Positions 3,226-26,780 of a stretch of DNA of 64,000 nucleotides are shown here, piece by piece (position 1 is the stretch's first letter; every line of letters begins with the position of its first letter). Position numbers and translations under genes: made by a program. Source of the stretch: an uncultured Actinomycetota bacterium (GTDB taxonomy: Bacteria > Actinomycetota > Actinomycetes > Propionibacteriales > Nocardioidaceae); NCBI GenBank assembly GCA_963728505.1, contig CAVSKH010000003.1, positions 513,352 through 577,351 on the forward strand, read 5' to 3'. The notes beneath the pieces are model-generated. The model worked only from the letters and a program-made list of their open reading frames with translations. It did not search any database and was not told where the DNA came from.

Positions 3226-3330
3226 CGGTCTCCGGTCCCCCGGCTTCAGTCACCGTCCCCAGGAAAGCAGTGTGGGCAACACCGCGTCACCTGGATTTCT
3301 TCCCCTGGCCCACCGGCCTGCCCCCTGCGA

Positions 3331-10000: not shown

Positions 10001-11048
10001 GGAGCCCGTCGACCGGAACGCCGAGCACGCTGCCGTGGAGCAAGGTGTCGTAGCGGGGCAGCGAGTCGCCGATCACCACCGAGGCCGCCTGCGAGACCGG
10101 GTAGGAGCCCTTGAACGAGGTGGAGTCCAAGGCGCCCGAGATCCGGCGCCCGTCGGAGCCGAGGATCTTGGTCGTCGGCTCGTCGTCGGGGGCATCGAGG
10201 CCGAGACCCTCCTTCAGCCGACCGATGCGGGGGTCGACAGCCGTCAGCACGGACTCGTCGCCGTCGTGGTCGACCGTCCAGCGCAACCCCGCCAGCACCT
10301 CGTCCAGGTGCTCGGGACCCCGCGCCGCGGCCAGCGGGTCGTGGGCCTGCTCGCGCCACCAGCCGGCGACGGTGTAGGTCGCCTGGCTCTCCTCCCAGCC
10401 GTCGGGGGCGTCCTGCGCGAGCGCCTCCAGGTCGTCCAGCGGGTCATGGAACCCGAACCGCCCGGCGCTCGCGGCGTACGACGCGGTCCAGATCAGCCCG
10501 TCGGAGGCGCCGGTCAGCGGGTCGAAGCGTGGGATGTCCGGGTCTGGCTGGTCGGGGAAGGTCCCGGTGAACTCGGCCAGTGGGACGACCACCGCGGTGC
10601 GTGCGTCGACCACCCAGCCGGTGGCCTGCACGCGGCTGCGCCCGATCGGCTGCAGGGTGCGGACCACGACCCAGGTGTCCGGCAGCCGGGGCATGCCCAA
10701 GGTCTCGGTGGCCGCGACGTGTCCGCCTGCGAGCAGCGCGTCCGGCATCGCCCAGTGCAGGTGCACTCCCGGGGACATCGGGGTGTGCTCGGCGAACGGC
10801 GCCGGGTCGAGCTGACGGCCGGTGAGAGGCACGACGGCCACAGGGTCGGCGGCGGTCGAGACCAGGGCTTGGACGTCGACGGGCACCAGGATCCGTCGCC
10901 GGCGCGACAGCCCGCGGTCCCAGGTGCCCACCACCGTGCGGTCCACGCCGATCTTGCCCAGCACCTCGAAGCGAGGGGTGGCCAGCGCCTGCTCGATCAG
11001 CTTCGTGCTGAGCGAGGACGAGAACAGGTCGTCGAGCGGAGGTGTCAT
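7059..11048 (-). CDS. hypothetical protein, 1329 aa (giant operon gene 5)
   Basis: This is the lower part of track ORF 7059..12185. The real start is the ATG at 11048 (MTPPLDDLF...), which overlaps the upstream stop (ATGA at 11045-11048). Protein-like composition. Distinctive motifs: HLHWAMPDAL, TWRQPWVPLWVEWQV, NPVAGFLLPDHID. Pro-rich linker QQDPPPKPPPPTPQ at about 9421-9460. Confidence 0.75.
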   Translation of the reverse strand: MTPPLDDLFSSSLSTKLIEQALATPRFEVLGKIGVDRTVVGTWDRGLSRRRRILVPVDVQALVSTAADPVAVVPLTGRQLDPAPFAEHTPMSPGVHLHWAMPDALLAGGHVAATETLGMPRLPDTWVVVRTLQPIGRSRVQATGWVVDARTAVVVPLAEFTGTFPDQPDPDIPRFDPLTGASDGLIWTASYAASAGRFGFHDPLDDLEALAQDAPDGWEESQATYTVAGWWREQAHDPLAAARGPEHLDEVLAGLRWTVDHDGDESVLTAVDPRIGRLKEGLGLDAPDDEPTTKILGSDGRRISGALDSTSFKGSYPVSQAASVVIGDSLPRYDTLLHGSVLGVPVDGLLPAADDAPRPDQLSVALGSDLDDVVAAFGAAVLHEGDDERRAAVEDVVAAMAAGLVNRLGSSDGLDDLGRREHDSGFWALPGTPVPGARPDRLRAEDTLAAGPMTVGRKGRAPINAALRATTQAADAGRDRTVRAKTLGFGSTVAWKQTFDLEDIRTARTKGKGGAATGADPGTARPRGRQQDPPPKPPPPTPQVREVERPAPRYHRPAPFILAVRGAHPSHRHHGDGLYDDNGLLACRYPGAAVPAYDGVVDGATVLPGLGSGAVPDEVTTVVREAVLLNPYGHRWLAAASTPPSGAQGAVASRLAAEVVRLYGVDGTFDGSAHVHFATNDANTRDAAPSTSSWSGHTVHEVAGKAQVAAEIARFSIVRGTPPSPVAHTTWRQPWVPLWVEWQVTLQGEATTSGWRVDGFDLSPDDPAAAGGGSVTTTLTGRSPLGPGLADSLHATLSDWVGSELQRQATAARSSFGDATVLQRLAELGAPLDLVSASLDGIREQLLGIDFVGVVERDPGGKPVASGVPTPLFGGTLRLDALRLVDAYGRTVSAPDPVLDDLQSTVELEVDGGARMVRMRPRFQGSARWLWRLVDASAPSGSTPDSLGEAYVDQLDPASATNPVAGFLLPDHIDETLEVFGIDGEPIGELGHDPVTGAVSWEPAPGRPLPPDASPPDGVPDRSRLVAEIAAALVRADASARAGEAGPPPSASALAVMLRAVDSTLWSVDTFGALGSGTVAGLVGRPLAVVRTTLCLDVPDDVDELEVTAPGGEQARRAAFDALGDQLVEVNLGTLARSDDALVGWFVGDDFEHLHIVDAALAEHARESGRQVAQLGLLGTAEQQGLPGESPLDHPYVVTQGRLFVRPRRPVTLTLLMLPAGRAHVTSGVLPRKDLALADSWVTPGLAKVMPSVRVGPVLVDPAEIRLPLVGLLGDKQSFTRRTGELTWRDDPILAATQTAYLPRLPHQAQEGWIRVSPTPDPETEGPAS

Positions 11049-12028
11049 GACCGCTCCTGGTTGAACACGCGGTCGACCATCGTGGAGTAGCGCACGGTGG
11101 GCTTGAAGACCTTGCTCAGGTCCAGCGACTCGGGGTCGCCCCAGACCTGCCGGTAGGGGAAGCGCACCAGCTGCAGGGCGTACTCGGCGCTGTTCATCCC
11201 CTCCTCGTCGTCGGCCCCGCTCCCCGCGATGGGTTGCAGCAAACGCTCGAGCTGCTTGATGTCGACCACGCCACTGGCACCCACCCGGAAGGGCACGTCC
11301 ACCGGGTCGTGGGACAGGTCGTCGAACGTCGCGGCGTTGCGGGGTTGCAGGGTGGCGGTCACCTGCCCGCCGGCGGTGGTGCGTTCGTCGAAGCCGAACT
11401 GCACGCCCTGCCGCGGCTCCTCGATGTGCACCACCTCGGGGATCCCGTCGAAGAGGCAGAGCAGCACCGCCGGGGCCAGCCGTTCCAGGCGGAGCAGAGC
11501 GATCCGCTCGGCGTCGTCCTCGTCGTACTGCGCGTCGTCGGACTCGGTGGGGTCGACGTCGAAGGCGCGCACGTGCAGGGCCGGCCAGCCGGAGACCGCC
11601 TTGGACCGCAGCAGGAAGCCGCTGACCGCACCGCCCCCACCGCTCACCCGAGGCCGCCCGGGGCGCCGTCGCTGGTTGCGCTCCTCGGTGTCCAGCTCGT
11701 CGCGGATCGCGGGATACTTCGCGGCGAGGTGGGCGCGGTCGTCGCTGTTGGCCGTGCCGACCGACAGCGCTCCCTGGACCACCGCGTCTGTCCAGCGCCG
11801 GTCGAGGTAGAACCAGCGGATCGACTCCTCCGGCAGCAGCAGGGTGTCGGGCACCAGGTAGGCGAACGGCACCTCCTGGAGGAGCCGCAGCTGGAGCAGC
11901 CAGGTCCGCAGCTCGGCGGGGATCACCCCGTCGCGATCCTCGTCGAGCACGGGCTGAGCCGCGGGACCCTCGAGGACCAGCCTGGTGCCGATCGTGTCGA
12001 GGATCGCCCGGGTGTCGAAGGTGATCAC
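11045..12028 (-). CDS. hypothetical protein, 327 aa (giant operon gene 4)
   Basis: GTG start overlaps the upstream stop (GTGA at 12025-12028). Motifs: LQEVPFAYLVPD, ESIRWFYLDRRW, VSGWPALHVRAF, IEEPRQGVQFGF. No family recognised. Confidence 0.7.
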   Translation of the reverse strand: MITFDTRAILDTIGTRLVLEGPAAQPVLDEDRDGVIPAELRTWLLQLRLLQEVPFAYLVPDTLLLPEESIRWFYLDRRWTDAVVQGALSVGTANSDDRAHLAAKYPAIRDELDTEERNQRRRPGRPRVSGGGGAVSGFLLRSKAVSGWPALHVRAFDVDPTESDDAQYDEDDAERIALLRLERLAPAVLLCLFDGIPEVVHIEEPRQGVQFGFDERTTAGGQVTATLQPRNAATFDDLSHDPVDVPFRVGASGVVDIKQLERLLQPIAGSGADDEEGMNSAEYALQLVRFPYRQVWGDPESLDLSKVFKPTVRYSTMVDRVFNQERS

Positions 12029-14028
12029 TGTCCGCCTCCTCCGGGGCCGTGGCGACGCAGGACCGCGTCCCTGACGATGCCTTCCAGCTGCGGGTCGTCG
12101 GCCAGCGCGCCGTAGGCCACGCGCTCGAAGCTGCCGACGAGGCGAGGCTGGAGGACTCCGTTGAGCAGGCCGGCGTCGAAGGCACGCGCCGGCTGGGGGA
12201 CCCGCACCGTGGTGTCCTGCAGCGAGGTCAGCACGCCGGACGCGGTGCCGGCCAGCGTGTCTTCCTTCACGCCCAGACCGGCGGCGAGCACAGCATTGAC
12301 TGCTGCTCCGCCGGCACCTGCCAGGTCTGCGACGCGAACCTCACGGCCGGGTCTGACCAACGGCGCCGGGTCGCCCAGGAAGTGCTCGGGTCGGGCCACG
12401 ATCGCCTCGGCCAGGATGCCCCCGAGCCTTCCGCCCAGGTCACGCTCGACCTGCAGGTCGTGCACCCCGAGCTCGGCGAGGATCGACCCCTGCGCGGCCA
12501 GGGCACCGGCCCGCTGGGCTGCCTGGTAGCCGAGCTGGCGCCAGCGCAGCAGCGAGGCGATGGTGGACGGGCGCGAGAGCGCCAGCAACCGGCCGATCTC
12601 GAACGCCCCTGCCAGCGAGATGTCCTCGCGCCCGTCCGGCACCACGACCCGCACCTGGTCGGCGGTGTGCGCCAGTGGGAGCCGACCCTCCGGCGGGTCC
12701 GCGGTCGGGTGCGGCACCAGCGGCCCGCGGTACCACGACCGCACCGGGTCGCCGCGCCGCGTGGTGTGGGCGAGCCCGACATGCCCCGTCTCGACGGACT
12801 CGAAGGGCGGACGACCCACGACCTCCTCCGCGCGTTGACCCTGCGGGGTGCCGAGAAGCCCGGAGTCCAGCTGCTCCATCAGTCGGCGGAAGGTCATCTG
12901 CCCGGTCGAGGTGAATCCCCAGTGCAGGAGCACGGGGAAGACCAGCGTGCGGTCGAGCTGGATGAAGTTGCCGCCGAGGAAGCCCGAGACCGCGGCGTTC
13001 CGGAACGGCTCGGCCATCGCGGTGTAGACCGCGGCCACCGACTCCGTCGCGGCGCCGGCGACCTGCTTGCTCCAGCCGGCCTTCGCCGAGTACGGCGTGG
13101 CGAGCCCGTCGCCGAGCGCAGTCGGGGTCGCGGTGGGTCTGGCGGGACCGGTGCCGGCAGGGGCGCTGGCGGGGGCACCGGCAGCGACCGGGCCGGCGAG
13201 GCTCCCCCCGGGGGCCTTGGTGTAACCGGCCGAGCCCATCGAGGCGTGGTCGTAGTCGGCCAGCGTGGCAAGCACGGTGTCGGTGACCGAGAACGGCAGT
13301 CGGGTACGCGTGACCGGCGTCGGCGCCTTCTCCAGGAGCTGGTCGAACTGCTCGGAGAGGTTGACCAGGCAGGCGAGGTACTTCACCGGGACCTCGTTGC
13401 CGTCGGCATCGCGACCGGGCAGGGGCAGCCGGTTGCCGATGACCACGGCGAGGTAGCCGTCGTCGTCGCCCATCATCAGCTCGGTGTCGGCGATGTCGAC
13501 CTCGCGAGCGTGGGCGAGCAGCTTGACCTCCTCCCGGGTGGGGAAGACGCGGTCGACGACCGACTTGCGGATCGCCAGGGCGTTGCCGAGCTCCACGTCG
13601 GCGGGCGTGTCGAGCACGACACCGGAGGTGACGCAGTCGGCGACGGGCTGGTTGAGCCGCATCTCCGCCTCGCCCTCGGCGATCAGCACCAGCGCCAGCC
13701 AGGGCTGGTCCTCGTGCCCCTCCTGGACGGTGCGCTCCCACGGCAGGGTCCGCCGTCGGATCACCACCTGTGGCAGCCGGGAGCCGTAGGCGCCCTCACT
13801 GCCCGCGGGTGGGAACGTGGAGAGCACCTGGTCCGGGGGGAGCTGGTACTGCGGCGACCGCACCCGCACGTGGGTCTGGAGCGGGTCGACCCGCAGGTCG
13901 TCGGAGTCGAGGGTCTCGCTGGGTCGGCTCGCGCTCAGCTCCTGGCTGCTGGTCAGCCGGTAGTCGCCGGCGGTCAAGGGCGGGGTGATCCTGGGGTAGA
14001 TCCGGAACGTCCCCTCGGGCACGACCAT
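12025..14028 (-). CDS. hypothetical protein, 667 aa (giant operon gene 3)
   Basis: This is the lower part of track ORF 12025..14184. The ATG at 14028 (MVVPEGTFRIY...) shares one base with the TGA of the giant gene (TGATG at 14026-14030). Motif PWLALVLIAEGE. Ala/Pro/Gly linker at about 13130-13230. No family recognised. Confidence 0.7.
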   Translation of the reverse strand: MVVPEGTFRIYPRITPPLTAGDYRLTSSQELSASRPSETLDSDDLRVDPLQTHVRVRSPQYQLPPDQVLSTFPPAGSEGAYGSRLPQVVIRRRTLPWERTVQEGHEDQPWLALVLIAEGEAEMRLNQPVADCVTSGVVLDTPADVELGNALAIRKSVVDRVFPTREEVKLLAHAREVDIADTELMMGDDDGYLAVVIGNRLPLPGRDADGNEVPVKYLACLVNLSEQFDQLLEKAPTPVTRTRLPFSVTDTVLATLADYDHASMGSAGYTKAPGGSLAGPVAAGAPASAPAGTGPARPTATPTALGDGLATPYSAKAGWSKQVAGAATESVAAVYTAMAEPFRNAAVSGFLGGNFIQLDRTLVFPVLLHWGFTSTGQMTFRRLMEQLDSGLLGTPQGQRAEEVVGRPPFESVETGHVGLAHTTRRGDPVRSWYRGPLVPHPTADPPEGRLPLAHTADQVRVVVPDGREDISLAGAFEIGRLLALSRPSTIASLLRWRQLGYQAAQRAGALAAQGSILAELGVHDLQVERDLGGRLGGILAEAIVARPEHFLGDPAPLVRPGREVRVADLAGAGGAAVNAVLAAGLGVKEDTLAGTASGVLTSLQDTTVRVPQPARAFDAGLLNGVLQPRLVGSFERVAYGALADDPQLEGIVRDAVLRRHGPGGGGQ

Positions 14029-17000
14029 CAGCGTCTCCTTCCCCGTCGCCACCGCAGGCTGCACCCCGTGCCGCTCGGGGCGGCGAGCAGCCGGGCGGTG
14101 GTGGCCGGCACCCCGTGCCGGCTGATCCTGTCGGCGGTGTCCTGGACCGTCTCGGTGCCGGCCAGGACGCCGGTGACCTGCCACGTCGAGCCGGTCGCCA
14201 CCCGCACCGCCAGCGTGGCCACCCCCGGCAGTGAGTCCGGTCCACCGGGCTGGCCGGGGGGCACGGCCTCCACGGCGTAGACGGCGGCCACCTGGGTGCC
14301 GTTGACCACGAGCACGGGCTCCGCCGGCCGGCCGGCGGCGTCACGGGCGCGGACCGCCCCGAGCAGCGCCAACCCCATCTCGTCGACGTGCTCGGGGTCG
14401 GCCGACTCGACCACGACCACGAGGCTGCGGGGCGGCGCGTCGGCGCCGAAGCCGCTGAACGAGGTCAGCACCGTGTCGGCGCCGCGCACCGCCTCACCTG
14501 CCTGGCACCAGGTCACCGTGGGGGCGGCACCGGCGTTGTCGAGTGTGAGCACGCACCCGGCGGCCAGCGCGGTGCCGGAACCGAGCGAGACCACCTGGGA
14601 GCGCGAGTGCCATCCGGCCACGCCCTCGTCGGGGACGACGACGCCACCGGCCTGGGCGACGAGGTACGCCGTGCCCGGCTCCACCGGCGCGGTTCCGGTC
14701 TGCACCCGGTCGGCCAGCACGACGCCGTCACCGCGGATCGTGGTCACTCGCGCGGACCCGCCCGCGATCTCGAGCCGAGGTCGTCGCGAGGCCGCGGTGT
14801 CGACGTCGGTCTTGTGGTCGGGCGCGTGCAGCGCGACCACGTCACCGGGCCGCAACGGGGTCGCCGTGGTCGTCGTGCCGGCGGCGCGACCGGTCGACGC
14901 CGCACCCCCGAACCCGGTGATCCCCGCGACGGCCGTGGCCGCGGGTCCGACGCCGAGGGCGAAGGAGCGCACCGTGCCACCGACGCCGGTGCGCGGCAGC
15001 ACCGCAGGGGTGACGGTCCTGGCGACCTTGGCTCCCGGCGGCACCGACACGTCGAGCTGGGTCGGCAGGTAGCGGCCCAGGCGCGCCATCACCGACTCCG
15101 AGGTCGGCGCCGGGCGGCGCGGCAGCCTCGCCTCGCTCACCGTGGTGCCCGCCCTGCGTGCAGCCACGTCGGCGCCGGAGGCGAGGAAGCCGACCACCCT
15201 GGGGTCCCGCTGCGCCCGCGGGGTCGGGGACTCCGGAGCGGCCATCTCCTCGCGTGTGACGTTGCCCGCGTGGCCGGCCGCCAACCCGTCGGCGAGCGTG
15301 CCGAACATCGGCGGCGCCGACACCTGTCCGGCGTACGACGCCCGGTCGAGGTTGCTGCGTCGGCCGTTGCTCTGGGGGCCGCCGGTGACCAGGAGCGGTG
15401 GGCTGGCGAAGAGCACCCGGCGGGCCTGGTCGATGGCTCCGGCGGTCGTCGTCGGGTGGGGGACGCCGACGCCGGCGGAGCGCACCAGGATCGTCTCGCG
15501 GGGGTCCATCTCGGCCTGGAGCGGCAGCGGGCGTCGCCCCTTGCCGATGTCGACGGTGTAGTAGCTGACGGTGGGGCCGGCCGTCGGGAGGTGCGGCTCG
15601 GCGACGAGGGTGACCTGGTTGCCGGTGGTGAGGACGTCTCCTGAGGGCAGCGCCGGCGCCGGCGTGTCGGGCGGGTCCGGCACCCCCCAGACCCCGAGCG
15701 GGAAGGACCCGCGGCCGAGCCGGCTGCCCTCGGGGCGCTGCCCCGGCCCGGTGAGGTTGGCGGCGAGCTCGGCCAGGTCCTCGGCGTCGTCGGTCCACTC
15801 CCCCTCGTCCTGGTCGAACCGTTCCAGGCGCAGCACCAGCCGCGAGGCCAGCCCACCGGCGCCCATGGGGTTCAGGCCCAGGTCGGTGCCGGCTCCGTCG
15901 GGCAGGGTCACCGGCGTCACCACGTCGGCGGGGAGCCCGACGGCGAACTTCTTGGTGGGCAGCGAGGTGGTCACGGTCAGCTCGAACTCGGCGTACACCT
16001 CGAACGGGCGCTCCACCGTGCCGTCGGGCGGGGGCGCGGAGCGTTCGCCGCCGGTGGCGCTGGGCAGGCTGCCGCGACCGGACATGGCGGTGATGGCACG
16101 GGCGACACCGTCGCCGGCGCTCTCCAGGTACTTCTCGACGAATCCGGGCCAGTCCTGCTGGATGCCCGGGCGCTCGGCCCCGCTGCCGAAGGGCACGGTG
16201 ACCGAGCACGGGCCGACCTCGACGGTGGCCTCACCGGAGAAGTCCGGGCCCCAGACGTGCACGCCGCAACCGGTGGTGATCGAGAAGCTGATGGTGCCCA
16301 ACCAGGTGTCGATCTCCACACCGGCGGAGATGGATGCGCGCACCTCGACGTCGAACCAGAAGGGGTCGAAGTAGACCAGCCCGTCGGCGCCGAAGCTGGC
16401 GCGCACCCAGGCCCAGCCGAAGTCGGCGACCGCCTCGACCCCGACCCCGGCCATGAGTGCCTCGGAGGTGAGCGCGAAGTAGGACCCACCTTTGATCGAG
16501 ATCTGCGGGGAGACCTGCCAGGACAGGCCGACCCGGGGCACCTCGGGGTAGCCCTCGCGGTGGAAGTCGGGGTGGTAGCCGCCGATGGTGAGCACGAACT
16601 GGCCGGACAACGGCCCCTTCCACCACACCATGAACGCGAAGCCCCCGGTGAGCCTGACGTCCTCGTAGAGCAGCCAGGAGTTGTCGGTCAGCGCGGCCCG
16701 GATCATGAACACGCCCTCGGAGGTGGAGAACCTCGCGAGCAGACCCAGCTCGATCGACACCAGGGGGGCGGCGGGGCTGGGCAGCGCCATCCGCGCCAGC
16801 CCCATCAGGTTGATCTCCAGCCCGTTGCCGAACGAGACCGCGATCACCGCGATGCCGTCGACCAGGGAGAAACAGGTGAAGCTGATCCCGCCGGCGAACC
16901 AGAAGGTGCCACGCTCGGGCCCGAAGTACTCGTTGAGGTCGCGCAACGCCTGCATCGGCTCGGGAATGCTGGCGTAGGGGTCGAGGGCGTAGATGAACGG

Positions 17001-20000
17001 GTAGGAGGGGAGCTCCGCCGGGTCGGAGGGGACCACCAGTCGCCGGTTGATGCCGAGTCCGCCGCCGATGCCGGTGACGAAGAACGCCGGTGGTCCACCG
17101 ATCGGGCCGTTGAAGGCGCCGAACACGAAGAACGACGGGGTGCCGGCGTCGTCGGTGTAGCCCCCGAAGACCGAGAGCCCGTAGATGCCGAAGCGGCCCA
17201 GCAGCATCCCCACGTACGAGGTGACGTCGCGGTCACCGATCCGGTCGACGCTCTTGAGCATCCCCCCGGCCAGCGAGACCCCGGAGAGGTCGGCGGAGAC
17301 CGCGAAGCCGTTGAGGTCGACCGCCCACTGGCCGATGTCGAAGAAGTCACCCCCCAGCCAGGTCAGCGACAGCTGGTCGACCGCGGCGGTCAGCCCGAAG
17401 AGCTCGACCCGGCCGTCGAAGAGCAGGGTGACGCTGCTGACCGTTCCCTCGACCTCGGTGGCGTTGAAACCGATCTGCTCCAGGTAGAGCGGGCCGAGCT
17501 GGCGCTGGATGACCAGCCACCAGGGGCCGGGTGGAGGCCCGGCGCGGACGGTGAAGGAGACGTCCTCGTCGCCCGGGTGCTTCTGCACGGCGAGGGCAGG
17601 GCTGAAGGCAGGACGTGCCGAGGGCGAGGACTCCCCCGCGTCGGCCAGGATCGAGCTGGCGACCGGGTTGGTGCCCGCCCCGCCGTTGGGGGCGAACGAC
17701 AGACCGGTCAGCTCCAGCTGGGCGCCGCCGCCGACGCCCGCACTGACTGCCTCGGCGTAGACCCGGAAGGCGATGCCGTCGAGACTGACCGCGCCCAGGT
17801 CGAGCAGGGGCCCGGTGGTGTTGGTGAACCGCAGGCCCACCCCGGCCACCGTCACGCCGGGCTCGAAGCTGAAGGCATAGGTGTCGGGTGACCCGGGGGT
17901 GCGTACGCCGCGCACGGCGTACACCGTCAACCCGGGGGTGACCTCCGGGACGAGCCAGGTGGCGTCGACGTCCAGCTCGACCTTCACCTCTCCGTCGGCG
18001 ACGGTGTAGCGCCCGTCACCGGCCAGCGTCAGGCTGAGGCCGAGCTGCTTGTCGTCGGCGCCCCCGGTCGCCGCCAACGACAGCCTGATCGGGTCGAGCG
18101 TCAGCGACAGCGGGTCGGTGTCGGTCGCGACGTTCCACAACAGCCGTTCCAACCGGTGCAGCAGCGCCTCGGGATCGAGCAGGTCGAGGGCGAAGGTCGG
18201 GTCCACGGCGAGGTCGGTGGCGACCGCGCTCTCGGTGAGCACGACACCCCGCAGCATCCGGGCGGCCCGCGCTCCCAGCAGGTCGTCCAGGGCGTCGACC
18301 AGGATGCCGCCGGCCAGCCCCACCGCGAGCGAGAGCAGCCAAGCCGGGGCCAGGTCCTCGTCCACGTCGTCGGCTCCCCCCGGGGTCGTCGCCTGGATGA
18401 CCGCGCCCAGGACCGGTGGCTGGGCGTCCAACGACCAGCGCAGCTGCACCGAACGATCGCCCGAGTCCTCCAGTGCCAGGCCGATGCCGATCATGCGGTC
18501 GCCGGGTTCCCGACTGCCGGCACGGGCCTCCACCATCGGACGCAGCGTGACCGGCCCGGCAGCGACCGGGAAGGGACCCAGCCGAGCGGCGACCGCGACA
18601 CCGGAGGGCGAGAGCTCCAGGGCTTCGAGCACCACCCGACCCACGTCGGGGATCTCCCAGTCCGCGGTGAGGACGACCACGGGAAGGGTGCCTGTGGTGT
18701 CGAGGGTGAGGGTGACCGCCTCGCTGCCGTCCGGCGCGACGGCCCCGAAGCCGAACGTGGTGAAACCCGTGCCCGGGGTGGCGCGAACCAGGCTGCCCCC
18801 GGGGTCGAGGGCCCGAGCCAGTGCGGTGGCCGCCGTGCCTGCCAGCCCCGGGAGCCGGCTCAGCAGCACACCGGCCGGGTCCTGGGCGAAAGCGCGGATC
18901 GCCGCCTCGTCGAAGCTCCCACCCTGCCGCAGCAGCAGGGCATCGCCGAGGTCGCTCACCAGCTGCCCGACGTCTCGCCGCAGACCGGTGCCCGCACCCA
19001 GATCAGCCACCTCGTCGAGGACCAAGGGGATCAGCAGTCCCGCAGCGGTGTCGGCGAGGTCGGCGATGCCCGGCCCGTCGGGGTAGAGCGACAGCGGCGG
19101 TGAGCCGTCGCGCAGCAGGTCGACCCGCAGGTCGGGGTCGACCCGCACCCTCAGACCCGGCCCCTCGACCGAGACCTCCGCGGAGACGTGTGGCGAGGGT
19201 GGCAGGCCCAGGGCCAGCACCACCCCGGCGGACAGGCTGGTGGTCACGGTGCGGGCCGCGCTGCCGGCGCCGACCTGCTCCTCCAGCTCGGCGGTCAGCG
19301 CGAGCCGCAGCCGGCCGGCGTCGTCGGCGTAGTCGACGCGCAACCCGTCGACCAGCGGCAGACCAGGGTCGGTGCCGCGGTCGGGGGCGACCAGCGGCGC
19401 GACCGCGTCGAGCAGCGCGACCCCTGCCGGACCGAGAGCCAGGTCCTCACTGCGGACCAGCCCGGCGAACCATCCGGCCGGGTCGGTGACGAGCCCGACC
19501 GGCAGCGCGAAGCGTCGTACGCCCTCACTCGTGGCCGGCAACAGGCCGAGCACCGCGAAGAGCTGCTCCAGCAGCGACCGGCCCTCGGCGGAGGCGAGCT
19601 CCAGGGCGGTCAGCGCCAGCGTCTTCACGCCCAGAGCGGGAAGCAGGACCAGGGCGAGCTCCTCGATCGCGTCCTGGTCGGGCGCGGGCCACACGGGGAC
19701 CGGGCGCACCACGCCCCCGGGCGCCGCCCACTCCAGCGCCACCCTCGGACCGGAGCCGGCGCCGGCCTCGACCACTGCTCGGAACCCGCCGAGGGCAGGG
19801 TCGAGGGCGCCCAGGGTGAGACGTCCGACGGCCTGCTCCGCTCCCGCGACGACACTGAGGTCGAGGGCGGCGAGGTCCACCCCGGCCTCGAGGTGCAACG
19901 ACGCGACGAGCTCCCCGGTCGCGAGGTCGAGGCCGATCGTGCCGGGTCCGACCGTCCAGGCCAGCGCGCTTCCGGTGCCCCCCGCTGCCGGAACGAGCGC

Positions 20001-23000
20001 ACGCAGGGCGCCCGCGATCCTCGTCGGGTCGAGCGTCACGCGGCCGCGCAGGGTGGCGGCGGGGTCGTGCAGCAGCCGGTCGAGCGCGTCGGGATCGAGG
20101 CCACCGTCGCGGAGCAGACCGAAGCTCTCCAGCAACGCCCGCAGGTCCGGCGAGGCTGCCGAGACCCGGTCGCAGACCGAGGACAGGAGCAGCCGGACCT
20201 CGGGGACCGCGCCGGTCACGGCCGCTCTCACCTCGCCGAGCACGAGATCGGGGGCGACCTCCCCGGCCCGGACCACCCAGCGCTCCCGCTCGATGCCCAG
20301 CCCGCGCACCTCGTGCAGCACCAGCTCGCTGGATCCGGGGCTGCCGTCGAGAGGCACCTCGACGCGCGCCGACATCCACCGCACGTCGCCGGCGCCGGCG
20401 ATGGTGCCGGGACCACCGACCAGCCAGCCGTCGTGGACGCCGAGGTGGACATCGACGACGACCGCGCGCGCCACAGCAGGGCTCAGTCCGGAGTCCTCCC
20501 GATCGATCCTCACGACCTCGAGGGCCGCGCCCACCCCGACCAGCAGACCACCGAGATTCAGGTCGAGGACCGGCACGTCCACCGCCGCGTGCAGCGCCGT
20601 CACGCCGCCGGAGCCGGTGACCGCCGTCTCGGCAACCGCGGCGTCGAGGCGAGCATGCAGCCCGTCGGCGACGTGAGCGGCGATGCCGTGCATCAGCGTG
20701 TCCTGGTCCAGGGAACCGAAGATCGCGGTGACGCTCTGCCCGGGGCTCACCGTGGCCGCCGGAGGCGGCCCCTCGCCGCGGATGATCCTGGCGCTGCGTG
20801 CCACCAGCAGCCGCATCCGTTGCAGGGCCGAGCACTCGTGGGCCAGCAGCTCGGCCGGCCAGGCGAGATCGGGGTCCGTCGCACCGATCACCGTCAGCGT
20901 CGACAGCAGCCGCAGTGCGTCCCCGCTCAGTCCGGACGACAACGCGGTGGTCCCGACCTCACCCCAGGGGCAGCCGACCGTCACGAGCGCGACGTCGAGC
21001 GCGGGGGCTGCCGCGGTGATCGCGGCCGCCGCCCGGACGACCGCGGCTCCGGCAGCGCCGTACCCGACGAGAGTGAGCGACTCGTTGCGGTCCGACAGCA
21101 GCGTCCGCAGCCGTGCGGCCTGCTCCTCGACGCCGCCCCGGTCGGGACGGTCAGCGGCTGCCGCAGCAGGTAGCGGCAGCCGCACCGCCCACACCCCGGG
21201 CCCTGTCGCCGGCACCCGCTGCTCCACAACGGAGGTGCCGCTCAGGTCGAAGACGCTGCCCAGGTCAGGTTCGGTTGCCCACAGCTCCTCGCAGCCGACG
21301 TGCACCACAGCCGTGGGCACGTCGGGCAAGGCCTCGGCGAGCAGTGAGCCGGCCGCGCCGCGCGCGACCAGCTCGTCGTACGACACCCCGTGGAGGGTGA
21401 GCGGGTGCACTCCTGTGGGGAGGGAACCGGGCTCGCCCACGATTCCGTCAGTGGTGCGCCAGCGGTCGGCCAGCTGGGCGAACCCGTCGGCGACCGAGTC
21501 GCGACCGACCATCAGCTCGACCACGTCCGGCAACGTGCTGGCGCGCAGCATCCCGGCGATCGCCTGCGGCTCGGGCGGTTCGGATCCCAGCAGCACGTCG
21601 ACCTGGGTCCCGGCCTGCTCGGGCGGCCGAGGGCACCCCGGGTCCAGCCACACCGCGAGACCGGGGGCACGTGCTTCCCCCGCGACCGGGCAGCGGTACG
21701 GCGTCCGCGCGCTTCCGGTTCCCAGCGGCGAGGTGCGCGTGAAGCCGCTGAGCAGCGCCGCGACCGGACCCAGCGCAGCGCCGACCCGCGAGCAGTCGAA
21801 CACCAGGTCGGCGACCCACTGCTCCACCGCCGCGACCGGGTCGCCGCCCACGAGGGCGCCCAGGCGCAGGTGTGGGCCGCTGCCCGCCCATCCCAGCAGC
21901 TCGATGACCGCGTCCAGCTCGGCGGAGCCGAAGCGCGCGATCAGCGCAGCCAGCGCACGCTCGATGGCGTCCCAGTCCGGGCTCGGAAGGGTCAGCCGCC
22001 CGTCCGGCCCGATCTGGGGCACCGGGATCGGCACCCGGAAGTCCGGATGGTTGAGGAGCTCGGGGGCATCGAGCTCCAGCGCGAGGTCGTCGGCGCTCAG
22101 CCGCGCGGTGAGCCCCGACGCCGGCAGCCAGACCAGCTCCACGCCCACCGAGTCCGCGACCACGGCCAGGTCCTCGGTGCCGAGCCGGGCCCGGGTCCCG
22201 TCGGTGTTGGCGAGCGCCACCCCGACGGTGGCGCCGTCTGCAAAGACCACTCGTCCGGAGGCGGGCGTCATCGTGAGCAGGCGCAGCACCGCCGACGTCG
22301 TGGCCGCAACCCCTGACGAACCCGCCACACCTGGGAAGACCGGCACCTCGGCGGCCAGGGCGAGGTCGGCGTGCAAGGTCCATGTGCCGTCGACCTCCTC
22401 GCGCCACAGCAGGAGGGCGAGCGGGTCGACCAGGACGATCCGCCACGGGTCCGCTTCGGTGCCCGCCCCGGGGAGCGCGCCGACAACGCCGGTCAACGCC
22501 TCGGCGAGGCTGGTCAGCGTCTCCGTCATCGCCGAGGCGTCGGAGAGCAGCTCCTCCCAGTAGCCCTGGATCGCGGCGACCGGGTCGGCGAGCAGGGCGG
22601 TCGCACTGATGTCGCTGACGCCGCTGGGCGGGTCGAGCCCCAGCAGGTCGGCGAGCAGGTCTCCCACGGCTCCGAGCTGTTCCAGAGCCGTGGTCAGCGC
22701 ACCGCCCACCACGCTGCCTCCGGCGTCGAGCGCGGCCTCCGGCGTGCTGAGGTCGAGCACGTCGTGGTGCTCCCCGAGCCGCACGTCGTGCAGGGTCAGC
22801 CGGAACGTCGGCGTGGGCGTGGCACCCGAGGTCAGCTCCGGAAGCCCGAGTCCCACGCGGATCCCGCCGACGTGCGGGTCGGTGCCGGTGACCAGTGCGG
22901 TGCCTCCTGCCTCCGTGCCGAAGGCGGCCTCGAGGCGAACGTCGGGGATCGCGGTACAGGACCCGGAGCCGGTGTCTGCCCGGAAGAGGTCGACCACCGC

Positions 23001-24128
23001 GCGGGCGGCCGCGCCGGCGCGTGTCCCGAGTGCCGCTTCGACCCAGGGTGTGAGCACCGGCTGGCCGCCGACGCCGTCCGTCACGCGCACTCCGATGCTC
23101 AGCTGCAACGGGTCGAGGTCGAGGGTGACCGCATCCCGCGCCAGGTCAGGAGTGCCGCCGAGCAGCAGCCCGAGCTGCGTCAGCCAGGCGTCGCGGGAGC
23201 CATCGTCCTGGACGACGGTGCGTGCCCAGGTGACCAAGGCACTCAGGCCCTGGCTGGGCAGATCTGCCAGGGGCAGCGGCGGCAGGCCGGTGACGTCTCG
23301 CAGCCCGAGCATGCCGGCGAGCCCGGCGAAGGGACGCAGCTCGGAGACGTCGAGGTTGCCCAGCGCCTCGGCCTGGGCCCGGATCAGTCCCGAGGCGAGG
23401 TCGAGGACGTCGGTGAGGATCTCGTCGGGTGAGCCGACGTCGAGGGTGAAGGTGCTCGGGCTCGGGGCGCCGGGCAGCTGCAGGTCGCGCAGCGTCATCG
23501 CGAAACCCACGTCGAGGCCGTCGGTCGGCACCCGCAGGGTCGCCCCCAGCCCGCCGAGAGCCGGCTCCCGCGCCGCCGGCGGGGTGTCGGTGAAGGTGGC
23601 GTCCACACCGATCTCGATGTCGCCGCCCTCACGTCCGAGCAACAACCAGGCGGGCGTGTCACCTCCCCCGGCGGGCAGGCTCGAGCCGCGCTCGGCGAAC
23701 CGGAACAGCGGCACGTGGATGCTGGTGGTGACCCGCGGCGGACCACCCGTGGTGGTGTGGGTGAAGCCGACGCCGAGGTGCACAGCGTCACCGGTGTCGG
23801 TGTCGGTCGCCGGGCCGTCGTCGACCACGGCGTAGACCGTGACGTCGGGGTCGTCCTCGTCGAAGAGCGGCACCCACTTCTGCCCACCCTGCTGGCGCTG
23901 GTCCGGCGGACCGAGGATCTCGTCGACGAACCGGACCAGGGCATCGCGCTGGTCCTCGTCGGCCAGCACGTGCTTCATCCCGTGGGGGGTGACCGGACCA
24001 CTGGGCCCCTCCCCCCCACCCACGGGATCGCCGAACCAGCTGGCGTTGGGCTGGCCGTCGGGGGTGAGCAGCCCCAGCGCGGTGGCCAAGTCACCGAAGG
24101 AGCCGAAGGAGGACTGGTCGATGCTCAT
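14028..24128 (-). CDS. giant hypothetical protein, 3366 aa (giant operon gene 2)
   Basis: Uninterrupted 10.1-kb ORF with protein-like composition. All overlapping plus-strand ORFs are R/G/P/H-rich shadows. No signal peptide. It has a lipase-like elbow with Ser replaced (LTLVGYGAAG, 21048-21065). It also has a Gly/aromatic-rich C-proximal module (GGYHPDFHREGYP, FFVTGIGGGLGI) at about 16190-18050. Confidence 0.8.
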   Translation of the reverse strand: MSIDQSSFGSFGDLATALGLLTPDGQPNASWFGDPVGGGEGPSGPVTPHGMKHVLADEDQRDALVRFVDEILGPPDQRQQGGQKWVPLFDEDDPDVTVYAVVDDGPATDTDTGDAVHLGVGFTHTTTGGPPRVTTSIHVPLFRFAERGSSLPAGGGDTPAWLLLGREGGDIEIGVDATFTDTPPAAREPALGGLGATLRVPTDGLDVGFAMTLRDLQLPGAPSPSTFTLDVGSPDEILTDVLDLASGLIRAQAEALGNLDVSELRPFAGLAGMLGLRDVTGLPPLPLADLPSQGLSALVTWARTVVQDDGSRDAWLTQLGLLLGGTPDLARDAVTLDLDPLQLSIGVRVTDGVGGQPVLTPWVEAALGTRAGAAARAVVDLFRADTGSGSCTAIPDVRLEAAFGTEAGGTALVTGTDPHVGGIRVGLGLPELTSGATPTPTFRLTLHDVRLGEHHDVLDLSTPEAALDAGGSVVGGALTTALEQLGAVGDLLADLLGLDPPSGVSDISATALLADPVAAIQGYWEELLSDASAMTETLTSLAEALTGVVGALPGAGTEADPWRIVLVDPLALLLWREEVDGTWTLHADLALAAEVPVFPGVAGSSGVAATTSAVLRLLTMTPASGRVVFADGATVGVALANTDGTRARLGTEDLAVVADSVGVELVWLPASGLTARLSADDLALELDAPELLNHPDFRVPIPVPQIGPDGRLTLPSPDWDAIERALAALIARFGSAELDAVIELLGWAGSGPHLRLGALVGGDPVAAVEQWVADLVFDCSRVGAALGPVAALLSGFTRTSPLGTGSARTPYRCPVAGEARAPGLAVWLDPGCPRPPEQAGTQVDVLLGSEPPEPQAIAGMLRASTLPDVVELMVGRDSVADGFAQLADRWRTTDGIVGEPGSLPTGVHPLTLHGVSYDELVARGAAGSLLAEALPDVPTAVVHVGCEELWATEPDLGSVFDLSGTSVVEQRVPATGPGVWAVRLPLPAAAAADRPDRGGVEEQAARLRTLLSDRNESLTLVGYGAAGAAVVRAAAAITAAAPALDVALVTVGCPWGEVGTTALSSGLSGDALRLLSTLTVIGATDPDLAWPAELLAHECSALQRMRLLVARSARIIRGEGPPPAATVSPGQSVTAIFGSLDQDTLMHGIAAHVADGLHARLDAAVAETAVTGSGGVTALHAAVDVPVLDLNLGGLLVGVGAALEVVRIDREDSGLSPAVARAVVVDVHLGVHDGWLVGGPGTIAGAGDVRWMSARVEVPLDGSPGSSELVLHEVRGLGIERERWVVRAGEVAPDLVLGEVRAAVTGAVPEVRLLLSSVCDRVSAASPDLRALLESFGLLRDGGLDPDALDRLLHDPAATLRGRVTLDPTRIAGALRALVPAAGGTGSALAWTVGPGTIGLDLATGELVASLHLEAGVDLAALDLSVVAGAEQAVGRLTLGALDPALGGFRAVVEAGAGSGPRVALEWAAPGGVVRPVPVWPAPDQDAIEELALVLLPALGVKTLALTALELASAEGRSLLEQLFAVLGLLPATSEGVRRFALPVGLVTDPAGWFAGLVRSEDLALGPAGVALLDAVAPLVAPDRGTDPGLPLVDGLRVDYADDAGRLRLALTAELEEQVGAGSAARTVTTSLSAGVVLALGLPPSPHVSAEVSVEGPGLRVRVDPDLRVDLLRDGSPPLSLYPDGPGIADLADTAAGLLIPLVLDEVADLGAGTGLRRDVGQLVSDLGDALLLRQGGSFDEAAIRAFAQDPAGVLLSRLPGLAGTAATALARALDPGGSLVRATPGTGFTTFGFGAVAPDGSEAVTLTLDTTGTLPVVVLTADWEIPDVGRVVLEALELSPSGVAVAARLGPFPVAAGPVTLRPMVEARAGSREPGDRMIGIGLALEDSGDRSVQLRWSLDAQPPVLGAVIQATTPGGADDVDEDLAPAWLLSLAVGLAGGILVDALDDLLGARAARMLRGVVLTESAVATDLAVDPTFALDLLDPEALLHRLERLLWNVATDTDPLSLTLDPIRLSLAATGGADDKQLGLSLTLAGDGRYTVADGEVKVELDVDATWLVPEVTPGLTVYAVRGVRTPGSPDTYAFSFEPGVTVAGVGLRFTNTTGPLLDLGAVSLDGIAFRVYAEAVSAGVGGGAQLELTGLSFAPNGGAGTNPVASSILADAGESSPSARPAFSPALAVQKHPGDEDVSFTVRAGPPPGPWWLVIQRQLGPLYLEQIGFNATEVEGTVSSVTLLFDGRVELFGLTAAVDQLSLTWLGGDFFDIGQWAVDLNGFAVSADLSGVSLAGGMLKSVDRIGDRDVTSYVGMLLGRFGIYGLSVFGGYTDDAGTPSFFVFGAFNGPIGGPPAFFVTGIGGGLGINRRLVVPSDPAELPSYPFIYALDPYASIPEPMQALRDLNEYFGPERGTFWFAGGISFTCFSLVDGIAVIAVSFGNGLEINLMGLARMALPSPAAPLVSIELGLLARFSTSEGVFMIRAALTDNSWLLYEDVRLTGGFAFMVWWKGPLSGQFVLTIGGYHPDFHREGYPEVPRVGLSWQVSPQISIKGGSYFALTSEALMAGVGVEAVADFGWAWVRASFGADGLVYFDPFWFDVEVRASISAGVEIDTWLGTISFSITTGCGVHVWGPDFSGEATVEVGPCSVTVPFGSGAERPGIQQDWPGFVEKYLESAGDGVARAITAMSGRGSLPSATGGERSAPPPDGTVERPFEVYAEFELTVTTSLPTKKFAVGLPADVVTPVTLPDGAGTDLGLNPMGAGGLASRLVLRLERFDQDEGEWTDDAEDLAELAANLTGPGQRPEGSRLGRGSFPLGVWGVPDPPDTPAPALPSGDVLTTGNQVTLVAEPHLPTAGPTVSYYTVDIGKGRRPLPLQAEMDPRETILVRSAGVGVPHPTTTAGAIDQARRVLFASPPLLVTGGPQSNGRRSNLDRASYAGQVSAPPMFGTLADGLAAGHAGNVTREEMAAPESPTPRAQRDPRVVGFLASGADVAARRAGTTVSEARLPRRPAPTSESVMARLGRYLPTQLDVSVPPGAKVARTVTPAVLPRTGVGGTVRSFALGVGPAATAVAGITGFGGAASTGRAAGTTTTATPLRPGDVVALHAPDHKTDVDTAASRRPRLEIAGGSARVTTIRGDGVVLADRVQTGTAPVEPGTAYLVAQAGGVVVPDEGVAGWHSRSQVVSLGSGTALAAGCVLTLDNAGAAPTVTWCQAGEAVRGADTVLTSFSGFGADAPPRSLVVVVESADPEHVDEMGLALLGAVRARDAAGRPAEPVLVVNGTQVAAVYAVEAVPPGQPGGPDSLPGVATLAVRVATGSTWQVTGVLAGTETVQDTADRISRHGVPATTARLLAAPSGTGCSLRWRRGRRR

Positions 24129-24137
24129 GGTCGCGGC

Positions 24138-24734
24138 TCAGCCGTGCGCTGCCATCGGGCGGACCAGGAAGAGCTCGTCCTCGGCACCGATCGCGGCCGG
24201 GACGAGGGACTTGCCCACGCGGTCGTGACCGGCCGCGGCGGCGATCTCGCGGGCGAGGGTGAGCACGGACTCCCAGGCGAAGGCACGCAGGCTGTCGGCC
24301 CAGAGGTCGACGACGACCTGCGGGCCACGAGGGATCGCGACGGTGGCCATCATCAGGCCGCGAGGCTGGTCGGCGGTGCCGACCGCCAACGGGACGTCGA
24401 CGGCGCGGCGTGCCCGGCCGCTGAGCTGGTCGCAGTCGACGGGGATCGTGACCATGACCAACCCTGGGCTGCAGGCCAGGGTCACCTTGTCGGTGGCGAC
24501 CCGGAGCTCGTCGGCGCCGGAGACCCAGACCACGGTGCGGCTTCCAGCGGTGGGCAGGTCGGCGACCAGTCGGGTGGTGCGCTGCAGCAGCGGGACGGCC
24601 TGCTTGGCCGGGACCTCGATCCAGCGCGACAGCGAGCCCGGCTCGAGCTTGCCGCGGCTGGCGGTCAGCCAGGTGCCTGCGGCGAGACCGAGGACGTTCA
24701 CGCTCGATGCGCGGGTTCGGGCGGTGGGTGACAC
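24138..24734 (-). CDS. hypothetical protein, 198 aa (giant operon gene 1)
   Basis: GTG start at 24734 is preceded by ggagggg 6 nt upstream. The stop lies 9 nt before the giant gene's ATG. No family recognised. Confidence 0.65.
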   Translation of the reverse strand: MSPTARTRASSVNVLGLAAGTWLTASRGKLEPGSLSRWIEVPAKQAVPLLQRTTRLVADLPTAGSRTVVWVSGADELRVATDKVTLACSPGLVMVTIPVDCDQLSGRARRAVDVPLAVGTADQPRGLMMATVAIPRGPQVVVDLWADSLRAFAWESVLTLAREIAAAAGHDRVGKSLVPAAIGAEDELFLVRPMAAHG

Positions 24735-25260: not shown

Positions 25261-25629
25261 TCAGCGACGACGGACGTCGAGGGCGTACGCCGTGGCGTTG
25301 ACCGCTGCCCAGCCGAGGGTGATGCCGAGGATCCGGCGCCGGACCCGGCCGGTGGTGGTGGAGCCGAGAACCGCTGCGTCGGTGAGGTCGTTGGCGATCC
25401 GCAGCCCGACCGTGGTCGGCACGACGGCCGGCGGGCCGAAGATCCCGAGCAGGGTCACCGGCAGCTCGCGGCCGGTGTAGGTGCGCGACAGCCGGTCGGT
25501 GCCGAGCCGTTCACCGGCCTGGTCCTCCAAGCCGTTCTGAAGGTGCCCGGGCTTGACGAGGGCGTAGAGGCCGTAGGCCGCCGTGAGCACGTGGGTGGCA
25601 CGCGTGAGCGGATATCCGAGAGTGGTCAC
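25261..25629 (-). CDS. small hypothetical membrane protein (122 aa)
   Basis: GTG start is preceded by gaggtgg. High third-position GC. Two to three hydrophobic segments. It lies 32 nt downstream of the protease gene on the same strand. Confidence 0.55.
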   Translation of the reverse strand: MTTLGYPLTRATHVLTAAYGLYALVKPGHLQNGLEDQAGERLGTDRLSRTYTGRELPVTLLGIFGPPAVVPTTVGLRIANDLTDAAVLGSTTTGRVRRRILGITLGWAAVNATAYALDVRRR

Positions 25630-26663: not shown

Positions 26664-26780
26664 CTGCAGCTCCGGTGAGGGATCTGGGTTCGCGCCCTGC
26701 GAGCCCAGAGGCAATGCTCACACACCCGGACAGATCGGGCCACGGTCGATGGTCCCGGCTGTCGACACGCAGGCCTGGGT

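Follow-up and report, generated by a model that had tools for sequence, protein, structure and literature searches.

Proteins with the DUF6603 domain (PF20248) form a sequence family that carries no functional information: its members are named in public records as 'DUF6603 domain-containing protein' or as hypothetical proteins, and it is not mentioned in the literature that was searched, which also held nothing relevant on giant proteins of unknown function. Among the systems that have been described, the Tc (ABC) toxins offer an analogy, as they are built from several subunits of great size, have neither signal peptides nor an ATPase and show a patchy horizontal distribution. A locus comparable to them in these respects is present in the stretch of 64,000 nucleotides analysed here (the window), which comes from an uncultured actinomycetote of the Nocardioidaceae (assembly GCA_963728505.1, contig CAVSKH010000003.1, positions 513,352 to 577,351). 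It contains an open reading frame (ORF) of 3366 amino acids (aa), referred to below as the giant, which is a member of DUF6603 and constitutes the 344-kDa subunit of an autonomous, horizontally moving cassette of six genes (Table 1).

The genes of the cassette are all on the minus strand and encode, in this order, proteins of 198, 3366, 667, 327, 1329 and 1243 aa, with stops and starts that overlap or nearly abut; together they account for about 7100 residues, about 741 kDa and about 21 kb of coding DNA. The TGA of the 198-aa gene is followed by nine nucleotides (GCCGCGACC) without a Shine-Dalgarno sequence and then by the ATG of the giant. The giant and the 667-aa gene overlap as TGATG, the start of the latter being preceded by the Shine-Dalgarno sequence GGAAGGAG, and the junctions of genes 4 and 5 consist of a GTGA start/stop overlap and an ATGA overlap, respectively. 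The cassette genes are translationally coupled. An earlier annotation made from the letters of the window (the sequence-only reading) had noticed both the start without a Shine-Dalgarno sequence nine nucleotides after the 198-aa gene and the stop that shares a base with the next start, and was correct in this; the giant cannot, however, be interpreted by itself, being one subunit of a strictly conserved cassette.

This conservation became apparent in a survey of one genome per species (185,579 species) scanned with the DUF6603 alignment, in which relatives were found to be encoded in at least 555 species genomes and the 80 best loci were kept. The presence of the cassette genes was scored by tblastn and ORF calling, counting only the loci long enough to be tested. 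In every testable locus (54/54) the giant is succeeded by the 667-, 327- and 1329-aa genes, always in this order. The 198-aa gene is placed upstream of the giant in 47 of 48 testable loci and the 1243-aa gene ends the cassette in 49 of 51; the complete set of six was found in 43 loci. Moreover, the lengths are near-constant across loci (about 200, 3250-3450, 680, 335, 1300 and 1250 aa). No conserved regulator or extra gene was found upstream of gene 1 or downstream of gene 6 in the genomes examined, and the cassette is therefore autonomous. No paralogy among its six proteins was seen with BLAST or hhalign. A Solirubrobacterales metagenome-assembled genome (locus L075, 5132-19902) has a shorter giant of about 2787 aa, with no 198-aa or 1243-aa homologue detectable despite adequate flanks.

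The cassette loci come from four phyla, namely Actinomycetota, Gemmatimonadota, Acidobacteriota and Pseudomonadota. The full gene order is present in the first of these in Marmoricola, Nocardioides, Pedococcus, Actinopolymorpha and Mycolicibacterium stellerae, and it is also present in Gemmatimonadota, in Acidobacteriota and in α-, β- and γ-Proteobacteria (Aliiroseovarius, Variovorax, Piscinibacter and Marinobacter); a Methylomirabilia contig shows the first three genes before it ends. Over its full length the giant of the window shares 43-46% identity with those of Gemmatimonadota and Marinobacter but only 34-35% with its other actinomycetote counterparts (Mycolicibacterium, Microbacterium and Streptosporangiaceae). 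As these identities do not follow taxonomy, transfer between phyla is indicated. The flanking genes are different in every genome examined and carriage is sporadic, with few species per genus. No relatives were found in the IMG/VR viral contigs or in 50,697 phage genomes. Several carriers are in culture: Marinobacter manganoxydans MnI7-9, M. flavimaris LMG 23834, Catellatospora sp. IY07-71, Variovorax robiniae KACC 18901, Pedococcus bigeumensis, Mycolicibacterium stellerae and Aliiroseovarius zhejiangensis KCTC 42443.

The giant ORF is a genuine gene. A chance open frame, a misassembly or a decaying pseudogene might be suspected, given that high-G+C DNA yields many long spurious ORFs (one of 1320 aa runs along the plus strand at 7128..11090) and that one public assembly of the same organism is frameshifted near the 5' end of the giant. 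However, in this window of about 72% G+C the G+C content at third codon positions (GC3) reaches 0.92, against 0.54 at second positions, and does so in the giant's own frame only; the Pfam match to DUF6603 (E 1e-118) likewise speaks against an artefact. Intact orthologues of 3250-3450 aa are found in dozens of genomes of four phyla and can be aligned end to end, so the giant is not a chance product of high G+C and the reading as a chance ORF or pseudogene is refuted. The frameshifted sequence is that of the ENA assembly ERZ25039549, whose contig_10329 (1.07 Mb) represents nearly the same genome, being 99.94% identical over 22 kb with 13 substitutions and one indel. The indel falls in a homopolymer that has six G there and seven in the window, and the shorter version cuts off the first 50 codons, so that a 50-aa and a 3316-aa ORF are called on contig_10329. 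Because the N-terminus lost in this way is conserved (the first 35 residues align among orthologues, with M1, G19, W31 and P35 invariant), the intact giant of the window is taken as correct and the G6 version as an assembly error. The probability left to an artefact is negligible. Other long ORFs, up to 1320 aa, lie antisense or out of frame to the cassette (on the plus strand at 7128-11090, 12049-14280 and 19188-21173, among others); frame-specific GC3 identifies only the minus-strand cassette frames as coding and these ORFs as high-G+C artefacts.

Much of what had been read from the sequence alone about this gene was borne out. The frame runs uninterrupted from ATG to TGA with a GC3 of 0.92, and the only version that breaks it is the G6 version of ENA, conservation supporting the seven G of the window. 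The composition (Ala 13.3%, Gly 12.5%, Leu 12.5%, Val 10.2%) agrees with the description of a protein rich in Ala, Gly, Leu, Val, Asp and Thr. The N-terminus, MSIDQSSFGSFGDLATALGLL, had been judged not to be a Sec or Tat signal; it is indeed too little hydrophobic for an export signal, and orthologues conserve it in this non-signal form. The giant has neither a signal peptide nor a convincing transmembrane helix, every hydrophobic 19-residue window of it containing charged residues.

Table 1. Genes of the cassette and features of the giant in the window (pI, isoelectric point)
Feature	Position	Strand	Description
Gene 1	24138..24734	minus	198 aa, basic, pI 9.3, ends 9 nt before giant ATG
Gene 2 (giant ORF)	14028..24128	minus	ATG start, TGA stop, 3366 aa, 344 kDa, pI 4.5
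Gene 3	12025..14028	minus	667 aa
Gene 4	11045..12028	minus	327 aa, acidic
Gene 5	7059..11048	minus	1329 aa
Gene 6	3331..7062	minus	1243 aa, Asp-box-like motifs
G7 homopolymer, giant codons 38-40	24011..24017	minus	G6 in ENA assembly, giving an N-terminal frameshift
Giant aa 1-2090	17859..24128	minus	Cryptic diverged modules of ~200-250 aa, from hhalign profile self-comparison
Giant aa 2131-2737	15918..17738	minus	Conserved DUF6603 core; Pfam match aa 2207-2669; β-meander model
Giant aa 2761-3366	14031..15848	minus	Conserved C-terminal region, pI 7.3, without known family, not hypervariable

Three parts can be distinguished in the giant. The N-terminal part, of about 2100 residues, consists of diverged modules that were recognized when the profile of a 33-sequence giant alignment was compared with itself using hhalign. 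The strongest correspondence is between aa 10-572 and 266-821 (probability 98.8%, E 6e-17), followed by aa 373-568 with 609-817 (97.4%, E 1e-11), aa 120-329 with 363-551 (94.3%, E 1e-7) and aa 1311-1882 with 1501-2140 (90.4%, E 1e-6), weaker links connecting the two halves of the array. In addition, the motif (L)LGL-x13-15-L..DP is repeated at aa 34, 515, 763, 1355, 1549 and 1750.

The central part contains the sole Pfam match of the giant, PF20248 at aa 2207-2669 (397.2 bits against a cut-off of 27, E 1.3e-118, profile positions 1-458 of 502). It is the most conserved stretch of the protein and the region that is common to the short variants described below. The AlphaFold2 model of aa 2100-2800, built from a 121-sequence alignment, has a mean predicted local distance difference test score (pLDDT) of 89.2 and a predicted template-modelling score of 0.77, and it presents the DUF6603 core as a novel all-β domain of about 30 long (10-19 residue) antiparallel strands in meander order with a few helices, many of the strands being amphipathic. 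When this model was compared with the PDB using Foldseek, only large lipid-facing β-sheets were retrieved (E 2.6e-4 to 1e-3, probability 0.96-0.99), with the Deinococcus SlpA barrel, the FimD/PapC ushers, LptD, porins and the β-belt of ApoB100 at the top. The template-modelling (TM) scores of these matches are 0.2-0.25, the root-mean-square deviations (RMSD) about 19-33 Å and the identities 7-8%, and the likeness of the model to membrane β-barrels and ApoB100 is generic and not one of homology. No significant match was obtained in the viral structure library. The C-terminal part has no Pfam or PDB match, and its invariant residues run on to W3360.

No recognisable enzymatic domain was found, as the sequence-only reading had it, but DUF6603 is a strong match. 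This catalogued family of unassigned function covers only 14% of the giant, and profile searches did not place most of the protein in a well-studied family, the outcome that would have refuted that reading. The description as non-repetitive stands at the level of sequence identity, where Tandem Repeats Finder detected no arrays (0) in the DNA and BLASTP of the protein against itself no internal match, but it fails at the profile level, where the cryptic modules appear. The structure prediction and Foldseek search that had been suggested as a check were run on aa 2100-2800 and gave a confident β-meander with only the generic likeness mentioned above. That the giant is neither a repeat adhesin nor a modular synthetase is upheld by Pfam, NCBIfam, Tandem Repeats Finder and self-BLAST.

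Outside the DUF6603 match the libraries searched provided very little. The giant has nothing in NCBIfam, PHROGs, PADLOC or a PDB sequence search, nor did the profile of the whole giant family find anything in the PDB. The five partners have no Pfam match (for four of them with E up to 10) and no accepted match in NCBIfam, PHROGs or PADLOC, and PDB sequence and profile searches with the 198-, 667-, 327- and 1329-aa families and with the 1243-aa protein gave nothing credible. PADLOC-DB v2, with its 5027 models, returned 0 families across the eight proteins scanned. The N-terminal approximately 2100 aa of the giant, its C-terminal approximately 600 aa and all five partners stand outside any family.

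Of these partners, the 198-aa and 1329-aa proteins belong to no family known to Pfam, NCBIfam, PHROGs, PADLOC or the PDB. In the model of the 667-aa protein (pLDDT 72), a β-domain predicted with confidence (aa 1-245) is joined by a disordered Ala/Pro linker to a helical C-terminal part; Foldseek found no significant fold match for it in the PDB (best E 0.04). An invariant acidic loop, H-x-R-x-V-D-x-x-D-T-E-x-x-x-G-D-D-D-G, occupies aa 173-200 of this protein (window ~13429-13512, minus strand). It is placed between two β-strands, has a low pLDDT in the model and could be a metal-binding or partner-binding site. The 327-aa protein is the most conserved of the five, with a mean column identity of 51%. 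The 1243-aa protein belongs to a family of about 1240-1300 aa that is restricted to the six-gene form of the cassette and has a C-terminus conserved across phyla. It has two strict Asp-box motifs, S-x-D-x-G-x-T-W (aa 95 and 293), and three degenerate conserved ones, a sub-threshold NCBIfam glycosylhydrolase match (15 bits against a cut-off of 175) and a homologue named 'Exo-alpha-sialidase' in UniRef, while no BNR match was obtained in Pfam; possibly it is a sialidase-like β-propeller.

More distant DUF6603 proteins, with about 30% identity, are present on plasmids and indicate which parts of the cassette are kept in other arrangements. The DUF6603 proteins of Paenibacillus polymyxa and of two Streptomyces plasmids are short (848-1092 aa) and match positions ~2131-2737 of the giant profile only, the module array being missing. 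The next protein in these loci (714-748 aa) is a fusion of a 667-like N-terminal part (E 1e-32 to 1e-37) with a 327-like C-terminal part (E 1e-21 to 1e-30), and it is followed by a homologue of the 1329-aa protein (E 1e-59 to 1e-67). What these Bacillota and Streptomyces short variants retain is the DUF6603 domain together with relatives of the 667-, 327- and 1329-aa proteins, four parts in all; only the six-gene form has, in addition, genes 1 and 6 and the N-terminal approximately 2100 aa and C-terminal approximately 600 aa of the giant. A relative of the 667-aa N-domain comes after the DUF6603 gene in the Bacillota, Streptomyces and haloarchaeal variants alike. In a Halobellus plasmid a 1207-aa DUF6603 protein precedes a 667-like protein (E 1e-7), and the VCBS-repeat protein encoded directly after DUF6603 in Streptomyces longwoodensis has a 667-like N-terminus (E 5e-5). 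An exhaustive search with the 327-aa protein among 1.84 billion proteins gave 3093 representatives of 50% clusters (2108 at E <= 1e-10), which include at least ten fusions of the 667+327 type; one fusion of the 327+1329 type was also found (P0383, 1577 aa). Considering the invariant order across four phyla, the translational coupling, the core kept in the short variants and the fusions of both types, we strongly infer a single physical complex in which the DUF6603 domain is joined, in fixed stoichiometry, by the 667-, 327- and 1329-aa proteins.

The surroundings of these distant loci are varied. The Halobellus sp. DFY28 plasmid (locus L083, NZ_CP134947, 7923-24735) has eight consecutive hypothetical genes, one of which encodes a second giant exceeding 1780 aa (2619 aa in the record), and only its DUF6603 and 667-like proteins are detectably related to the bacterial cassette. 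The operon of the Streptomyces longwoodensis plasmid (locus L086, NZ_CP107814, 112-23425) has a very different layout, with four giant genes encoding a peptidoglycan-binding protein of 1519 aa, the DUF6603 protein of 1328 aa, the VCBS-repeat protein of 1709 aa with the 667-like N-domain and a hypothetical protein of 1491 aa; an RHS-core protein is encoded nearby on the opposite strand. In the Paenibacillus polymyxa plasmid p-YT9A (locus L081, NZ_CP133769, 454-7002) a cluster of toxin-delivery type is placed ~8-14 kb upstream of the short cassette and comprises two genes for 'phage baseplate assembly protein V' (VgrG-like), a DUF4280 (PAAR-like) gene, a GH-E nuclease fragment and an ankyrin-repeat gene. 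Another short variant (L082) adjoins CATRA/CHAT conflict genes and transposases, and a Fic toxin gene is found near a further distant locus (L085).

Within the libraries searched, the cassette lies outside every known kind of system, although the DUF6603 sequence family itself is already catalogued. The analogy with the Tc toxins can be extended a little further. TcA contains a neuraminidase-like domain, beside which the Asp-box motifs of gene 6 may be set, and VCBS and RHS proteins are encoded near one distant DUF6603 locus. Nevertheless the six proteins show no VRP1/SpvB, TcdB_toxin_mid, TcA_TcB_BD or RHS/YD signatures in Pfam, the giant and the 1243-aa protein both have C-termini that are conserved across phyla and include no hypervariable toxic domain, and no RHS or Tc structure is among the Foldseek matches of the DUF6603 model, so that membership was rejected. 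With membrane β-barrels and the ApoB100 β-belt the DUF6603 model shares long antiparallel strands in meander order, many of them amphipathic. An outer-membrane β-barrel was rejected on account of the lack of a signal peptide, the occurrence of the family in monoderm Actinomycetota and of a more distant DUF6603 relative in haloarchaea, and the failure of closed-barrel superposition (best TM-score 0.21-0.25, RMSD ~19-33 Å). Giant repeat adhesins, nonribosomal peptide synthetases and polyketide synthases resemble the giant in size only: it has no tandem repeats beyond the cryptic ones seen with profiles, no Ig, cadherin or RTX domains and no secretion signal, and no condensation, adenylation, ketosynthase, acyltransferase or carrier domains were found in Pfam or NCBIfam. 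Extracellular contractile injection systems (eCIS) and type VI secretion systems (T6SS) are similar in being multi-gene, horizontally moving cassettes of structural proteins, and one Paenibacillus variant lies near VgrG-like and PAAR-like genes; membership was rejected since no sheath, tube, baseplate, spike or ATPase families were detected with Pfam and PHROGs, the model of the 667-aa protein, the one partner that was folded, has no significant match, and no viral relatives exist among the collections searched. A known defence system was rejected as well, there being no PADLOC match.

The cassette probably encodes a large molecular machine without prior study. As no nucleoside triphosphatase (NTPase), nuclease, protease, export signal or convincing transmembrane helix was detected in its approximately 7100 residues, it is read as self-assembling, energy-independent and built in the cytoplasm. 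We tentatively propose, with low confidence, that this would be an ATP-independent complex acting on membranes in conflicts between organisms. It would assemble itself in the cytoplasm without a supply of energy, the module array of the giant may serve as a scaffold, the large amphipathic DUF6603 β-sheet might engage or perforate a lipid membrane and the Asp-box protein of gene 6 could be a glycan-binding targeting subunit. Released by lysis or in an unconventional manner, the complex would then act, by analogy, as a multi-subunit toxin; less likely, it might perforate the membrane of its own producer. A conflict role is in loose agreement with the RHS, VCBS, peptidoglycan-binding, VgrG-like, PAAR-like, GH-E nuclease, CATRA/CHAT and Fic genes that adjoin distant DUF6603 loci. 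Several observations weigh against the proposal. The TM-scores are only 0.2-0.25 and the barrel likeness may reflect nothing but a long β-meander; conservation is uniform along the giant, which has no hypervariable toxin or receptor-binding region, unlike polymorphic toxins; and neither a lysis cassette nor a secretion system nor an immunity gene accompanies the cassette in the loci examined, the six-gene loci being found among housekeeping genes and not in toxin or defence islands. The carriers are free-living soil and water bacteria without a known target organism. Moreover, the models cover about 1370 of the approximately 7100 residues, and a novel or highly diverged enzyme fold could hide in the remainder.

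A role in anti-phage or anti-plasmid defence would imply a complex that senses infection and kills or arrests the cell through the DUF6603 sheet or an unrecognised enzyme. The patchy, horizontally transferred distribution with variable flanks, the apparently cytoplasmic nature of all cassette proteins and the CATRA/CHAT genes and transposases beside one short variant could all be explained in this way. We consider it unlikely, however, because no PADLOC model matched, no nuclease, NTPase, protease, TIR or SIR2 domain was found, the 21 kb of the cassette are far above the typical size of a defence system, and the three six-gene loci inspected have housekeeping or metal-resistance neighbours instead of defence islands. 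Ordinary neighbouring genes would suit a non-antagonistic cellular structure, such as a cytoplasmic or envelope scaffold, a cage or a lipid-associated body, that confers an accessory physiological trait. The lack of enzymes and export signals, the strict stoichiometric organisation, the uniform purifying conservation of every protein, with no diversifying regions, and the generic likeness of the β-sheet to the lipid-wrapping ApoB100 belt point in the same direction. This too we hold to be improbable, as the sporadic, transfer-shaped distribution would be unusual for a cell-biological structure, no metabolic or cargo genes are conservedly linked to the cassette and distant variants adjoin toxin-type genes.

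The giant could also be a surface or extracellular protein, an adhesin or matrix component, exported by an unrecognised route with the partners as its dedicated export or anchoring apparatus. It is of suitable size, acidic and rich in Gly, Ala, Thr and Asp, and Asp-box proteins, like the VCBS and peptidoglycan-binding proteins of one distant variant, are typical of the extracellular space. Such a role is nevertheless quite improbable: no protein of any variant examined has a signal peptide, no Sec, Tat or lipoprotein signal or transmembrane segment occurs in any of them, so that nothing could form a membrane channel by known rules, and neither an ATPase to drive export nor tandem Ig-like or RTX repeats are present. 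The vicinity of VgrG-like and PAAR-like genes, some 10 kb from the Paenibacillus variant, would accord instead with a diverged phage-tail-like machine, an eCIS or T6SS baseplate in which the wedge proteins TssF and TssG would correspond to the 667- and 327-aa proteins; the sizes and order of the two genes may recall those of tssF-tssG. Against this, Pfam and PHROGs gave no match to sheath, tube, baseplate or spike families, tail-tube structures match the 667-aa model at best with E 0.2-2 and a probability of 0.01, the cassette has no linked genes for a sheath, a tube or an AAA+ ATPase, and the viral and phage collections contain no relatives; we regard a tail-like machine as very improbable.

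Seen more broadly, the cassette may represent a new class of ATP-independent, self-assembling machine of about 0.74 MDa per subunit set, with a novel core of about 30 β-strands and three partners without detected characterised relatives. Its core would predate the split of the Bacillota and Actinomycetota variants, with more distant relatives in haloarchaea, and it would be either a new family of membrane-perforating or cargo-delivering toxins or a new prokaryotic cellular structure. Taken jointly, these statements have in our estimation somewhat less than an even chance of being right. A new membrane-active or delivery machine would, if confirmed, add a class alongside the Tc toxins and contractile injection systems, and a cellular structure would be one new to prokaryotic cell biology. 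In at least 555 species, about 21 kb of coding DNA that is strictly conserved and transferred together has no functional annotation, no detectable relative of solved structure and no mention in the searched literature, and its conservation across four phyla implies strong selection for a function yet to be described. The existence of cultured carriers opens the cassette to direct genetics, proteomics and cryo-electron microscopy, and this, with its breadth and conservation, makes it a tractable case of large-scale functional dark matter.

In the window the cassette is flanked by housekeeping genes (an MFS transporter, an FMN-dependent dehydrogenase, a dehydrogenase, Fpg, a sulfatase, phosphoenolpyruvate carboxylase, MMPL and Mrp). 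Rfam, tRNA, promoter and terminator scans gave nothing. A minus-strand gene just upstream of the cassette (25662-26714) encodes a protein of 350 aa that carries a clear signal peptide at its N-terminus (aa 18-40) and weakly matches Trypsin_2 (E 5e-4); in other genomes neither this protein nor the adjacent 122-aa ORF (25261-25629) has a counterpart beside the cassette. At 28670-30046 on the plus strand a DUF222 protein is encoded (E 7e-35), the one gene in the neighbourhood that looks mobile. Members of DUF222 are as a rule associated with HNH endonucleases, and actinomycete genomes often contain several copies.

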